The notes under the pieces were generated by a model, which was not told the DNA's origin, made no database searches, and was given only the letters and a program-made list of their open reading frames with translations. This document shows, piece by piece, positions 31,583-40,392 of a DNA stretch of 64,000 bases. The stretch's first letter is position 1; the number at the start of each line of letters is the position of its first letter. Position numbers and translations under genes: made by a program. Origin of the DNA: a virus (taxonomy: Duplodnaviria; Heunggongvirae; Uroviricota; Caudoviricetes); the IMG/VR virus record IMGVR_UViG_3300011338_000526; one strand, written 5' to 3'.

Positions 31583-32404
31583 TTATCGAATCCCAGGAAG
31601 GTTGATGAAAGGAACACCGGAAGTAGCAGCCGGCAGCTGACCATTCCACTTCTGCGCAGCCATGTACTGGACCAACTCAGGAGTCACGGAAGCAGCCACG
31701 ATTCGGTTAGCAGCAGCCTGACCCTCAGCCTCAATACGTTGACGCTCAGCTTCCTGTCGAGCCGTCTCTACCTGCTGACGGCGCTGCTCAGTCTCCTGAC
31801 CGGCAGAGATTCGGCGGTTGATGGCTTCAACGACTCGTGCATCAAGACGGAACTGACCAACTGCGTAGATGTTGTCAACCATAATACCATGAGGACTCAT
31901 TCGCGCTTGAACAGCCTTCAGAACCTCATCCATGAAAGCGTTCTTACCGTCACCGATAATGTCTTCGATACGGCGAGTAGAGGCAGCACTCACAAGAGCA
32001 TCCCGAACCTCGTTACGAAGAGTCTGGCGAGTGATTTCCATCGCACCCATACGATAGCGCTGGAAGATATCAGGAATTCGGTTGCGATCAAACACATACT
32101 GCACACCGAAGTCGCCATTAATGTTGGCACCTTCACGAGACTGAATATCGATCGACTCATTGGTGGGACTCTGGCTGGTATTAGCAGCATCCCAGACGTA
32201 GTTTTGAACGAACGTCGGGAACGTATAGAGTCGCTCAGTGAAGCCAATCCAGTGGCGACCCGGCTCGAGCAGATTACGCTGCACACCACGCTCACCGCCA
32301 GAAGTGGTCACCTTCACGCCCACCTGACCCGGCTCGACGTAATCACAAGCCACTGTAGAAAGAGCGAGAACACTCACGGCAGTCATCTTAGCAAAACGAT
32401 TCAT
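31583..32404 (-). CDS. SPFH/band-7 (HflC/stomatin-like) lipoprotein
   Basis: Lipobox ...LALSTVAC. Band-7 core and C-terminal coiled-coil QETEQRRQQVETARQEAERQRIEAE. Confidence 0.7.
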   Translation of the reverse strand: MNRFAKMTAVSVLALSTVACDYVEPGQVGVKVTTSGGERGVQRNLLEPGRHWIGFTERLYTFPTFVQNYVWDAANTSQSPTNESIDIQSREGANINGDFGVQYVFDRNRIPDIFQRYRMGAMEITRQTLRNEVRDALVSAASTRRIEDIIGDGKNAFMDEVLKAVQARMSPHGIMVDNIYAVGQFRLDARVVEAINRRISAGQETEQRRQQVETARQEAERQRIEAEGQAAANRIVAASVTPELVQYMAAQKWNGQLPAATSGVPFINLPGIR

Positions 32405-34161: not shown

Positions 34162-34190
34162 ATCATACCCCTAAGATGAAAATAAGTCAA
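34162..34190 (-). promoter_or_regulatory. early promoter module on reverse strand
   Basis: Reverse complement reads tccTTGACTTattttcatcttaggggTATGAT. Confidence 0.5.
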
Positions 34191-34454: not shown

Positions 34455-34483
34455 ATCATAACCCGGTTTCAAAAATAAGTCAA
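34455..34483 (-). promoter_or_regulatory. early promoter module on reverse strand
   Basis: Reverse complement reads agtccTTGACTTatttttgaaaccgggtTATGATggttttataagatc. Confidence 0.5.
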
Positions 34484-34486
34484 GGA

Positions 34487-34687
34487 CTATTTTGCTTCGG
34501 GATAGAGGTAATCCATCTCGCCGGTCTCCTTCATCCGGCGAAGCTGCCGAGCTACGAGCGAGGCGATCTTGCCGTCGCGCGAGAGCCCGACGGCAAGGCA
34601 GCGATCCAACAGAGCCAACTCAGAGTCCGTCAGCATATAGCGGAGTTCTTTTTCGAAAGCGGTCATTTCAATTTCCTTCGTCATCAT
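34487..34687 (-). CDS. small hypothetical protein
   Basis: ATG 34687 directly after -10 (possibly leaderless). Confidence 0.4.
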   Translation of the reverse strand: MMTKEIEMTAFEKELRYMLTDSELALLDRCLAVGLSRDGKIASLVARQLRRMKETGEMDYLYPEAK

Positions 34688-34693
34688 ATTATC

Positions 34694-34731
34694 ATCATAC
34701 CTCAGGTTTGAAATTAAAGCAAGGAAATTAA
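34694..34731 (-). promoter_or_regulatory. promoter variant ccTTGCTTTA-N-TATGAT (MotA-box-like)
   Basis: Reverse complement reads tccttgctttaatttcaaacctgaggtatgat. Confidence 0.35.
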
Positions 34732-34753
34732 AAACCAACGATTTCAATCACTT

Positions 34754-35115
34754 AGGTCTTAACCCATTGAAATCGTTGGGTAATGTTTTTTGAGCCGATC
34801 AAAGATTTTTCTAAAATCAAGCGATTTCAATGACTTAGCGAAAATCGGCTCTCTCGTTGATCTAGATACGGTTGAGCCGGTATTCTCCCGGTTTAGATCA
34901 ACGAGAGCGGCTAAAACCCGTAAGTCACTGATTTTACAAGACTTTTTAAATTCGCCGAAAAATAAAAAACCTTGTGATTACTGTGACTTAGCGGAAGCCT
35001 CACGCGAGCGATGCCTTAAAACGGGAAGAATCTAAGATCGGCTCAAAAAACATTACCCAACGATTTCAACCACTTAGGTTCGCCGCCGAGCTAAGTCGTT
35101 GATTTCCTTCAAAAA
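34754..35115. repeat. palindrome/iteron-rich element: 34-bp perfect inverted repeats flanking ~235 bp with six ACTTAG-core iterons
   Basis: IR 34788-34821 vs 35057-35090. 14-bp hairpin 34756-34800. Iterons at 34770, 34853, 34945, 35004, 35092, 35110. Confidence 0.6.
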
Positions 35116-35123
35116 GATAATCC

Positions 35124-35152
35124 TTGACCTTTTTTCAAAAATGAGGTATGAT
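35124..35152 (+). promoter_or_regulatory. early promoter module (TTGACC variant)
   Basis: tccTTGACCt-N17-TATGAT. Confidence 0.5.
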
Positions 35153-35176
35153 GGTTTTATCAAGAGGAGAGAGAAA

Positions 35177-35266
35177 ATGACTCAGGCGGTTTTGAACGTT
35201 CTCGGCGGTCTCGGTTTCGCGGCTGCGCTCTATGGTTTCACTGCCGTCCTCTTCCTGGTCGGCTGA
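35177..35266 (+). CDS. 29-aa hydrophobic micro-protein (single TM)
   Basis: GAGGAGAGAGAAA-ATG. MTQAVLNVLGGLGFAAALYGFTAVLFLVG. Hidden inside a spurious 100-aa ORF. Confidence 0.25.
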   Translation: MTQAVLNVLGGLGFAAALYGFTAVLFLVG

Positions 35267-35277
35267 AGGAGAAAAGT

Positions 35278-35451
35278 ATGTATCTCGTGAGCTTTACCAA
35301 CATGGGCTACTCGAAGGAATTCGCGAGCCAGGATTCGGCGATCACCTATATGAAGCGTGCGTGCTTCGAGGCGGTCCTGATGACGCCGAAAGGCGAACGG
35401 ATCGGCGAGTTCCGCCCGATCTCCGGCGAATTTATTTTTCAAAATCGCTGA
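35278..35451 (+). CDS. 57-aa hypothetical protein
   Basis: GAAGGAGAAAAGT-ATG. Ends just before next promoter module. Confidence 0.3.
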   Translation: MYLVSFTNMGYSKEFASQDSAITYMKRACFEAVLMTPKGERIGEFRPISGEFIFQNR

Positions 35452-35460
35452 AGATAGTCC

Positions 35461-35489
35461 TTGACTTATTTTTAAATCTAAGGTATGAT
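35461..35489 (+). promoter_or_regulatory. early promoter module
   Basis: agtccTTGACTT-N17-TATGAT. Confidence 0.55.
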
Positions 35490-35742: not shown

Positions 35743-35770
35743 TTGACTTAATTCCCGAAACCCAGTATAA
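35743..35770 (+). promoter_or_regulatory. early promoter module
   Basis: agtccTTGACTT-N16-TATAAT. Confidence 0.55.
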
Positions 35771-35802
35771 TCATTAATGTGATGATGATAAAGGAATCAA
35801 AG

Positions 35803-36557: not shown

Positions 36558-36586
36558 TTGACTTATTTTTAAAACCAGGGTATGAT
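36558..36586 (+). promoter_or_regulatory. early promoter module
   Basis: gcccTTGACTT-N17-TATGAT. Confidence 0.55.
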
Positions 36587-36611: not shown

Positions 36612-36761
36612 ATGATCGAATTCTTTAAGATGGGATATGATGCGTTCTGGAAGGGCGATAGGTGCCCCGAGGACGCGAGCCCAGAACAGGCTATCGAATG
36701 GAAGCGCGGATGGGATGAGGCTGTCCATTGCGTCATGAAGAAAGAATATGCGTTCGATTAA
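36612..36761 (+). CDS. ribosome modulation factor (RMF)-like 49-aa protein, tentative
   Basis: GYDAFWKGDRCPEDASPEQAIEWKRGWDEA fits the E. coli RMF core GYQAGIAGRSKEMCPYQTLNQRSQWLGGWREA. Confidence 0.4.
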   Translation: MIEFFKMGYDAFWKGDRCPEDASPEQAIEWKRGWDEAVHCVMKKEYAFD

Positions 36762-36766
36762 TCTTT

Positions 36767-37186
36767 TTAAAAACATTTTTTGTTATGATGCCCGAAGAAA
36801 GAGGGCACTGAAGTTTCTTTTCTACAACCCAAACAAGAGATCCTAACATAGTTTGGGTTGTTTCTTTTCCCCAAATTGCTTTTTATCGCTGCTAGTTTTC
36901 CTTTTTCTGATTGCATCTTAGAATCGTACACTCCCGTTTTTCTTTCTTTTTGTTTTCTGTGAGTGTCGCGAGCGTTCTTAGATAACAATCTAGCAAAACC
37001 TTCTTTGTAGGTTATTTGCGAATTTAATAATTGGTAAGACCAAAGATCTTCGATTTTGCCGTGTTTTTTATAGAGCTCTAGATGAGCTTCAGCGTGGTCT
37101 TCGACCGTTAGTTTGATTAAATTATCTTCGTCGTCCGTTCCTCCCATATGTTTTGGGATGATATGGTGGACGTGGTAAATAGTCAT
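36767..37186 (-). CDS. HNH homing endonuclease
   Basis: HHIIPKHMGGTDDEDNLIKLTVEDHAEAH. C-terminal CxxC...HH..C. Confidence 0.65.
   Translation of the reverse strand: MTIYHVHHIIPKHMGGTDDEDNLIKLTVEDHAEAHLELYKKHGKIEDLWSYQLLNSQITYKEGFARLLSKNARDTHRKQKERKTGVYDSKMQSEKGKLAAIKSNLGKRNNPNYVRISCLGCRKETSVPSFFGHHNKKCF
36834..36880 (+). terminator. 11-bp stem-loop plus T-rich tail (terminator of cassette array). Lies inside the HNH ORF 3' end
   Basis: acaacccaaac...gtttgggttgt ttcttttcc. Confidence 0.4.
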
Positions 37187-37268: not shown

Positions 37269-37297
37269 TTGACTTCTTTCCGAAACTCAGTTATAAT
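37269..37297 (+). promoter_or_regulatory. early promoter module
   Basis: cgcTTGACTT-N17-TATAAT. Confidence 0.55.
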
Positions 37298-39905: not shown

Positions 39906-39982
39906 TGGTCCCGTAGCTCAGCTGGACAGAGCAACAGACTTCTAATCTGTGGGTCGCACGTTCGAGTCGTGCCGGGATCTCC
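39906..39982 (+). tRNA. tRNA-Arg (anticodon UCU), 3' CCA encoded
   Basis: Cloverleaf by hand: acceptor GGTCCCG/CGGGATC, anticodon arm ACAGA-CTTCTAA-TCTGT, T-arm GGTTCGAGTCC-like, discriminator T then CCA. Confidence 0.8.
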
Positions 39983-40006
39983 AATATCAAATCATAGGAA
40001 CATGTC

Positions 40007-40300: not shown

Positions 40301-40373
40301 GCGCCTGTAGCTCAACGGTCAGAGCGGATTGCTCATAACAATTTGGTTGCGGGTTCAAGTCCTGCCAGGCGCA
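40301..40373 (+). tRNA. tRNA-Met/Ile2-type (anticodon CAU), no encoded CCA
   Basis: Acceptor GCGCCTG/CAGGCGC. Anticodon loop CTCATAA. T-arm GGTTCAAGTCC. Confidence 0.75.
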
Positions 40374-40392
40374 CTAATTGAAGGAAGTAACA

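Follow-up and report, generated by a model that had tools for sequence, protein, structure and literature searches.

The DNA analysed here, which we call the window, is the whole stretch of 64,000 nucleotides, and it comes from a T4-like phage: gp32, a gp5 OB domain, gp6 baseplate domains and NrdA are recognised by Pfam. The genes near the element under study match PHROGs and distant phages of the T4 superfamily, two tRNAs are present in the window, and, judged by protein similarity, the nearest isolates are phages of Proteobacteria. The element sits exactly at a divergence of transcription, with minus-strand genes on its left and plus-strand genes on its right, which confirms the junction between reverse and forward genes described in an earlier note made from the letters of this DNA.

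Two near-consensus sigma-70 early promoters, facing outward, border the element. The early-promoter cassettes that stand before small ORFs on both sides form a family of 8-9, nearly identical to one another, to which these two promoters belong. The non-coding stretch between the two promoters is about 400 bp long, and about 360 bp of it are occupied by an array of seven copies of an asymmetric motif. The features are listed below; the sites are called IHF-type for a resemblance discussed later, "T" is the first base of their TCAA core, and scores in bits are those of a position-weight matrix for the motif, derived from relatives.

34490..34666, minus strand: first leftward early gene, 59 aa, MTAFEKEL...; its homologue is the first rightward gene of the related locus L001
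34694..34722, minus strand: leftward early promoter, -35 TTGCTT (34722-34717), 17-nt spacer, -10 TATGAT (34699-34694); mirror image of the right promoter, in a family of TTGACT-17-TATGAT sites
34730..34755, plus strand: IHF-type site 1, T of TCAA at 34744, 31.2 bits
34759..34784, minus strand: IHF-type site 2, T at 34770, 31.4 bits; tail-to-tail with site 1, forming the 14-bp hairpin 34735-34779
34767..34811, no strand: left arm of a 45-nt inverted repeat, made of the upstream half of site 2, its T/A-tract and GAGCCGATC
34790..35035, plus strand: 81-aa ORF with a TTG start, spurious
34813..34838, plus strand: IHF-type site 3, T at 34827, 32.9 bits
34847..34912, no strand: central palindrome, RNA fold of -35.6 kcal/mol, z -5.2; a GGTAT core is kept in relatives
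TTGATC 34857-34862, 18-nt spacer, TATTCT 34881-34886: weak promoter-like pair inside the central palindrome
34920..34945, minus strand: IHF-type site 4, T at 34931, 21.6 bits; ATCAG...TTAC, degenerate
34966..34991, plus strand: degenerate site 5, position 34980, 16.6 bits; TCAA core replaced by ACTG, with an intact copy in L085
35025..35069, no strand: right arm of the 45-nt inverted repeat, made of an A-tract and the upstream half of site 6
35052..35077, plus strand: IHF-type site 6, T at 35066, 29.8 bits
35091..35116, minus strand: IHF-type site 7, T at 35102, 24.7 bits; an exact WATCAANNNNTTR match, 22 bp from the -35 hexamer
35124..35152, plus strand: rightward early promoter, TTGACC, 17-nt spacer, TATGAT
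35178..35267, plus strand: first rightward early gene, a 29-aa hydrophobic peptide

Repeats and palindromes of the element

A repeat search of the element returns an inverted repeat with arms of 45 nucleotides (34767-34811 and 35025-35069) that are 93% complementary. Its core, 34767-34800 and 35036-35069, is the perfect 34-bp inverted repeat reported by the earlier note, whose positions, 34787-34821 and 35057-35090, were 21 nucleotides too high. The note took this repeat to flank the element: it encloses a segment of 235 bp and is internal to the element, not at its ends, and it is built from two copies of the motif in opposite orientation, A-tracts included. The element reaches outward to the mirror-image pair of promoters, which form an inverted repeat of their own (34678-34725 and 35121-35168).

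The hairpin with a stem of 14 bp, also described earlier, exists as well, with perfect arms at 34735-34748 and 34766-34779; it spans 34735-34779, not 34756-34800. Further imperfect palindromes are present, such as the one of 66 nucleotides at 34847-34912, in agreement with the nested palindromes that the note had described. Folded as single-stranded DNA, the 396 nucleotides of 34725-35120 reach -84 kcal/mol, against -40.9 +/- 3.6 for dinucleotide shuffles (z = -11.9), a self-complementarity that is strong because the element holds inverted copies of its sites and lies between mirror-image promoters. The GC content is 40% in the element and 47% in the window, and runs of at least five A or five T are enriched about 8-fold. 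These features of the element are far beyond chance. We propose that the 34-bp inverted repeat and the long hairpins are not functional units; they would have arisen from the inverted placing of the sites and from recurrent conversion or template switching between them.

The motif that had attracted attention, ACTTAG, was said to occur six times in both orientations. Both orientations are indeed found, but the exact count is five, at 34750, 34833, 34986 and 35072, and in reverse (CTAAGT) at 35091, versus 17 in the whole window. The hexamer is part of a longer repeat: a search for CGATTTCAATSACTTAG with up to 3 mismatches gives 4 matches, all in the element, where 0.48 are expected. The repeat unit is an asymmetric motif of 26 bp, AAAA-N3-AA-N2-A-WW-TCAA-N4-TTAG, with seven copies within 34730-35116. 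The position-weight matrix scores these seven copies, which it places at 34744-35102 and which lie within 373 bp, between 16.6 and 32.9 bits; in the rest of the 64 kb, it finds only two marginal matches, of 10.9 and 11.7 bits, and none of at least 12 bits.

The seven sites occur in both orientations, at spacings of 26, 57, 104, 49, 86 and 36 bp. One tail-to-tail pair stands against each promoter, three single sites occupy the centre, and A/T-tract spacers lie between them. Within the early-promoter family of the window, the motif is found upstream of the two innermost promoters only; the other early cassettes have neither the motif nor an obvious stem-loop.

The 81-aa ORF was already suspected to be spurious, and we reject it as a coding sequence. 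It is interrupted by in-frame stops in L085 and L109, the mismatches by codon position (24/23/32, 15/15/25 and 17/17/17) have no third-position bias, and more distant relatives have no long ORF in its place. The element contains no DnaA, CtrA, MotA-box or late-promoter motif, and its enrichment in GATC and GANTC is not convincing.

The array in related phages

The window carries a gene with a DUF932 domain 2.2 kb to the right of the element. Scanning IMG/VR with this protein yielded 80 loci, to which scans for the exact motif added others; the clusters of motif copies described next were located by a profile search and a motif scan. The earlier note had proposed to look for the repeat elsewhere in the genome and in relatives: the motif is confined to the element within the 64 kb, and the same array is present in about 20 diverged viral contigs, which share the layout of seven sites in about 360 bp at the same position. 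Two of them, L085 and L109, align with the window across the whole element at about 67% identity. Arrays of seven copies in 355-380 bp are found in L007-11, L015-17, L027, L084, L085, L109, L121, L135, L138, L145, L162 and L163. Each related locus has one cluster of motif copies, every full-length array that we read by sequence lies between outward-facing promoters, and the array is 0.6-2.2 kb upstream of the DUF932 gene wherever a contig carries one.

Compared by BLASTN with 50,697 GenBank phages, neither the element nor related elements had a homologue; the nearest isolates by DUF932 protein, Methylophilales phage Melnitz and Sinorhizobium phage phiM12, have no array in the regions examined; and two scans of metagenomes with window-specific 20-23-mers gave zero matches and no close relative. 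When genome contigs were scanned for the site pair, 8 isolated matches turned up in MAG contigs, with no arrays and no clue to the host. A degenerate pattern for the pair matches 54 viral stretches where about 1 is expected, most of them with a spacer of 12-13 bp according to a tally of the listed match lengths. We also searched the literature and found no description of such an array.

The spacing of the sites is constrained. Measured from T of TCAA to T of TCAA in a common orientation, the first spacing is 25-26 or 36, the second 55-57 or 66-67, and the third 103-115; the fourth and fifth together make 135-137 in 8 of the 9 variants and 127 in L010, and the last is 26 or 36. Each of the first two spacers thus takes two discrete values about 10 bp apart, and steps of this size suggest a constraint of helical phase.

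The sites are also coupled to the promoters. The copy nearest to a promoter always turns its A-tract side to it. In 16 independent promoter contexts, 22 bp separate the TCAA of this copy from the first base of the -35 hexamer; distances of 11-12 and 32 bp form minor classes, and that of 11-12 bp comprises, by manual count, the lineages of L015, L007, L023, L027, L084 and L033. Modules made of a site pair plus a promoter are found at three promoters of L004. In L081 and L093, pairs of the motif lie upstream of promoters in several intergenic regions, at more variable distances and often flanking GC-rich palindromes.

Some relatives have much shorter forms. The four closest by DUF932 (L001-3 and L005, 80-82% identity) have a single site pair between the promoters, and L004 has two. 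Since one pair suffices in the closest relatives, the central 300 bp or so are dispensable in some lineages.

The order of the genes near the element is not fixed: the first leftward gene of the window is the first rightward gene of L001 and vice versa, and the outer genes keep their sides. The whole array is inverted relative to DUF932 in the L015/L007 group, and the central block is apparently flipped in L027 and L084. The elements end in mirror-image copies of a promoter plus a site pair, which form imperfect inverted repeats of 45-103 nucleotides in L015, L027, L084 and L010, and the inversions are most simply read as recombination between these mirror-image promoter cassettes. The perfect 34-bp inverted repeat is lineage-specific, L085 being without it on one side. 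Redundant contigs of one type (L007-9, L015-17) show a single orientation.

Resemblance to IHF sites and to known systems

We collected 88 copies of the motif from 14 variants, using a seed that weights all ten of its specified positions equally. The near-invariant positions are TCAA-N4-TTA, with WW before TCAA. The information content is 1.45-1.91 bits in TCAA, 1.8-2.0 bits in the TTA at +8 to +10 (T of TCAA being position 0) and 0.6-1.1 bits in the N4 between them; upstream of TCAA, there is A at -3 and W at -2 and -1. Two further features appear at positions that lie outside the search pattern and are therefore unbiased: AA at -7/-6 in 62 of the 88 copies (70%, versus 13% in the background), exactly 9 bp from the AA of TCAA, and a tract of at least three A within -17 to -10 in 48 of the 88 (55%, versus 20%), positions -14 to -11 being A-rich.

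The canonical binding site of IHF consists of WATCAA, a TTR that follows it after four bases, two central AA steps at a distance of 9 bp, where prolines intercalate, and a tract of 4-6 A in its 5' half (PMC1874591). All four elements are present in the phage motif at the canonical offsets, with the A-tract at about -14 to -11, AA at -7/-6, WWTCAA at -2 to +3 and TTA at +8 to +10 (PMC1874591). The H' site of lambda attP, with WATCAANNNNTTR, its AA steps separated by 9 bp and an A-tract on the 5' side, shares all four at the same offsets. Like canonical sites, the phage motif is asymmetric and is found alone or in pairs; unlike them, it has A or T at -1, and its N4 and final G are semi-conserved. 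By sequence, these are candidate sites at which the IHF of a host that encodes it would bind and bend the DNA by about 160 degrees.

The strict WATCAANNNNTTR fits 35 of the 88 copies, and WWTCAANNNNTTR fits 66. The other copies, outside the strict IHF consensus, have T for A at one W position, and include four of the five strong copies of the window: there, site 7 is exact, sites 1, 2, 3 and 6 differ only by T for A at -1, and sites 4 and 5 are degenerate. Single elements of about 400 bp in L007-11, L023, L027 and L054 hold 3-5 strict WATCAANNNNTTR matches, where about 0.01 is expected. The N4 and the flanking bases are more uniform within one phage than IHF would require, which may be due to a binder specific to the phage or just to conversion between copies. 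Taken as a whole, the motif points to the host IHF, or to an IHF-like DNA bender, as the probable ligand, rather than to a phage-specific regulator. The earlier note had listed, among its candidates, a binding array for a regulator of the phage; a binding array is the right kind of answer, with the likely binder being another one. Neither the window nor the related loci contain a homologue of HU or IHF.

Regions whose several IHF sites fold the DNA into a defined higher-order complex are known: the lambda attP intasome, with 3 sites in about 240 bp, lambda cosB and the fim switch. The phage array resembles them in having several phased sites within a few hundred base pairs, and its spacer steps of about 10 bp would fit a higher-order folding. 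It differs in having seven sites, in lying between promoters and in belonging to a lytic-type T4-like phage. Neither inspection by eye nor a repeat finder revealed another set of repeated sites that could serve a recombinase or terminase, and the flanking ORFs screened gave no integrase or recombinase domain. Closer in position are the Pe/Pc operator region of Mu and lambda pL, where divergent early promoters have an IHF site between them or upstream, whose bending alters their activity, and where one or two IHF sites go with repressor operators; the phage array has seven sites and no repressor-type operator.

In origins of the iteron type (lambda ori, P1, pSC101, R6K gamma), tandem direct repeats are found with a Rep protein encoded next door and an adjacent unwinding element. 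The array shares with these origins its repeated sites of a protein-binding type, the putative involvement of IHF, its A/T-rich DNA and the ATPase gene that adjoins it in some relatives. However, tandem direct repeats at a regular spacing of about 22 bp, a Rep gene among the flanking ORFs screened and a marked unwinding element are all missing from the window.

Comparison can also be made with the PeSL cassettes of T4-type phages, in which an early promoter is associated with a stem-loop just upstream, in a plastic region of ORFans subject to gene shuffling (PMC2839356, PMC4122927). In the phages studied here, near-consensus early promoters are likewise repeated among small ORFans, with cassettes shuffled and inverted between relatives, and there is a stem-loop immediately before the promoter, made by the nearest site pair, though only at the two promoters that flank the array. 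Unlike PeSL, the array of seven sites is one fixed locus and not a dispersed cassette, and the papers on PeSL mention neither IHF nor the phage motif (PMC2839356, PMC4122927).

Function of the element

The palindromes of the element lend themselves to two readings. According to one, the element would encode a structured non-coding RNA, or act as a DNA cruciform or hairpin by its structure, as the z of -11.9 in the window, the values of -4 to -12 in 12 of the 13 variants folded (the exception being the short form L004) and the z of -5.2 of the central hairpin might suggest. That hairpin, however, is absent or non-significant in 6 of 12 relatives (L109, L084, L027, L007, L010 and L023), and where it is strong, in the window, L033, L094 and L015, it has a different sequence each time, without positionally matched compensatory changes. 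No Rfam family matches at its gathering score, the best being a CopA-like hit of 21.6 bits for a threshold of 60 (E 0.25, in scans that extended to E <= 1), and no conserved promoter or terminator brackets the hairpin. The folding that the earlier note had recommended thus reveals a strong self-complementarity but no conserved central structure, and we regard an action through RNA or cruciform as very improbable. The other reading is that of a MITE-like insertion, as the note had offered, or of a programmed, fimS-like promoter switch bounded by the 34-bp inverted repeat, which does surround a 235-bp segment with a weak promoter-like pair. Between the window and L001, the element and its nearest genes have opposite orientations with respect to the outer genes, and the flips of the array in the L015/L007 group and of the central block in L027 and L084 go in the same direction. 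Against this, the locus is single in the 64 kb and in each related contig, its flanks, GGTCTTAACCCA and CCACTTAGGTTC, contain no target-site duplication, the inverted repeat is lineage-specific and made of two site copies, and synteny is kept in relatives at 65-80% protein identity. Within about 4 kb, the 18 flanking ORFs screened contain no recombinase, transposase or initiator-like domain, only an HNH endonuclease; redundant contigs have one orientation only, and recombination between mirror-image promoter cassettes accounts for the inversions. The note had held that absence of the element at precise boundaries in close relatives would favour a mobile element: the short forms of L001-3 and L005 keep a site pair and do not end at the inverted repeat. 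A recombinase site of the hix/gix type was considered and rejected, since the geometry of its half-sites and the variable spacers, of 3 versus 13 bp, do not fit. These observations refute a MITE-like insertion, and a mobile or invertible element seems to us scarcely probable at all.

There remain two rival readings in which the sites would bind protein. The sites could be operators for a sequence-specific protein of the phage, a repressor of early shutoff or an activator, that happens to resemble the IHF consensus. The N4 and flanks are uniform within each phage and differ by lineage (TGAC/CCAC in the clade of the window, TGGG in that of L015), inverted pairs suit dimeric regulators, and arrays of the motif were not found in bacterial reference genomes. 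However, single asymmetric copies are as well conserved as pairs, most sites lie upstream of the core promoter without overlapping it, no conserved DNA-binding gene lies beside the array, whose neighbours turn over, and the same motif occurs in unrelated-looking contigs. Above all, the AA at -7/-6 and the 5' A-tract emerged at IHF offsets outside the search pattern, which is unlikely to be a coincidence; we therefore find this reading rather unlikely. The earlier note had also proposed an origin of replication with iterons. It may be that an IHF-folded region rich in A/T-tracts is unwound, or primed by R-loops, through the negative supercoiling and the transcripts of two strong divergent promoters, much as in the origins activated by transcription that are known in lambda, T7 and T4 (oriF and oriG). 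There is one long array per genome segment examined, with low GC, A5+/T5+ enrichment and a phased architecture; it lies at the strand switch, at a local minimum of cumulative GC skew, although gene orientation confounds the latter. In 8 relatives, the gene next to the array encodes an AAA+ ATPase of unknown function (phrog_1250), as expected for an initiator, but this gene is not in the 64-kb window, and the weak internal promoter-like pair is conserved, by reading, in 5 relatives. On the other hand, the copies do not form a tandem series of direct iterons, 9 variants are free of DnaA boxes at up to one mismatch, and the neighbouring ORFs screened have no Rep-like domain. The least stable part of the element is at the 99th percentile at 30-100 bp, yet outside the 8 least stable parts of the window, and at the 94th at 400 bp; the closest relatives keep a single site pair, and many promoters of L081, L093 and L004 have these motif pairs upstream. 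Several hallmarks of the iteron model are missing here; a lytic origin in the broader sense is possible but unlikely, and may be additional to a control of the promoters. A bolder variant, which we mention as something of a long shot, is that the seven sites form a wrapped, intasome-like body that would fire both early arms and serve as the primary origin of replication, by transcription-driven unwinding or R-loop priming, with the phrog_1250 ATPase of many relatives as loader or initiator.

The reading that we favour, giving it about an even chance, is that the element is the shared upstream control region of the two divergent early promoters, whose seven IHF-type sites would be folded by the host IHF or by an IHF-like bender. 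After infection, IHF, or an IHF-like protein that induces U-turns, would occupy the sites. The promoter-proximal site, on a fixed helical face beside the RNA polymerase, would bend the upstream DNA, and the array of about 360 bp would fold into a compact, phased nucleoprotein structure. The folded array would then set the activity of both diverging early transcription units, and possibly their coupling or insulation. The sequences themselves show what the motif contains, that it is unique to the element within the window, that the number, order and spacing of its copies are conserved, where they stand relative to the promoters, and that coding capacity and a conserved RNA structure are absent; we infer both IHF as the binder and the transcriptional output. 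Early promoters are used before any phage protein is made, and a host factor is accordingly to be favoured, though this too is deduction.

Some observations fit the control region less well. Where the offset is 11-12 bp, an IHF footprint, at 34 bp, would extend over the -35 hexamer, which suggests repression there, or a smaller protein. Moreover, if the closest relatives manage with one pair, the three central sites must add something further. Seven sites is, to our knowledge, far above the number at any known IHF-activated promoter; the IHF-assisted promoters, origins and recombination sites that we know of have one to three.

If IHF does bind, the array would surpass in density every natural array of canonical IHF sites that we know to have been described, and we know of none before it in a T4-like lytic phage. 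The spacing steps of about 10 bp offer a ready-made natural series of mutants for the study of phased DNA bending. If the element were also an origin, it would fill a gap, since we know of essentially no replication origins beyond that of T4 itself. IHF is essentially proteobacterial, and the array, if correctly interpreted, would thus provide both a cis-element marker for the clade and a clue to its hosts. It would also give a testable model in which an uncultured, widespread clade of freshwater phages recruits an architectural protein of the host at the first step of infection.

Promoter cassettes and an inversion around the proposed control region

The early-promoter cassettes of the window are nearly identical across about 70 nt, with the pattern tCC-TTGACTTATTTTTAAA..GGG-TATGAT-GgTTTTATAAGAtcGAAAGGA, and each follows on immediately from the stop codon that ends the small ORF before it. 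These cassettes resemble the promoter-early stem-loop (PeSL) cassettes of T4-type phages, but lack an obvious stem-loop.

Early-promoter cassettes in the window
34162-34190, minus strand
34455-34483, minus strand
35461-35489
35743-35771
36558-36586
37269-37297

On the 3' side of the -10 hexamer lies a conserved transcript leader, TATGAT-GATAAT-ATGATGA(A/C)GAAGG, found in the window at 34682-34699 (minus strand), with equivalent leaders in the related contigs L001, L015 and L027. Its ATGATG falls at about the predicted transcription start, with both the Shine-Dalgarno sequence and the true start codon lying 3' of it.

When the window is compared with its closest relative, L001, the genes directly adjoining the control region on either side have exchanged both sides and strands: the left-flank gene at 34490-34666 (minus strand) corresponds to L001:7854-8084 (plus strand), and the right-flank gene at 35278-35451 (plus strand) to L001:7475-7681 (minus strand). 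This exchange is a local inversion, bounded by mirror-image promoter cassettes.

Other genes and signals in the window

The early cassette array is transcribed forward except for an antisense ORF of 139 aa inside it (36767-37186, minus strand), which encodes an HNH endonuclease, probably a free-standing homing endonuclease. A 49-aa ORF (36612-36761, plus strand) bears a weak, sub-threshold likeness to the Pfam family RMF (ribosome modulation factor), at E 0.0036 and 17.8 bits where the cutoff is 27.9, and the leftward early island encodes a member of the SPFH/Band-7 family (phrog_200, which carries the annotation 'lipoprotein'; 31583-32404, minus strand). Genes for tRNA-Arg(TCT) and tRNA-Met(CAT) lie at 39907-39983 and 40301-40374; tRNA-Arg(TCT) is also present in Methylophilales phage Melnitz, which among isolates has the most similar DUF932 protein (54% identity). 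The T4 late-promoter consensus TATAAATA has eleven exact matches across the whole window, none of them inside the element.

The array and its motif in relatives

In eight relatives, a gene for an AAA+ ATPase of about 290 aa (phrog_1250) lies close to the array of IHF-type sites, and in several of these it is the first gene beside it. The protein has weak AAA_16/AAA_22 domain matches, and its N-terminus, MPRGVPKNGFR, resembles an AT-hook; the 64-kb window contains no homologue.

Genes for the phrog_1250 AAA+ ATPase
L085:2198-3064
L109:9338-10216
L007:2533-3408
L010:5244-6119
L033:5950-6810
L054:3141-3995
L094:5397-6230
L027:739-1141

In two other viral contigs, at L081:4360-9490 and L093:9680-13911, the IHF-type motif of the array occurs as pairs around GC-rich palindromes, for example GGGGCCCC. 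The pairs are found in many intergenic regions, 5' of TTGACT promoters, and seem to represent the motif in a dispersed, cassette form.
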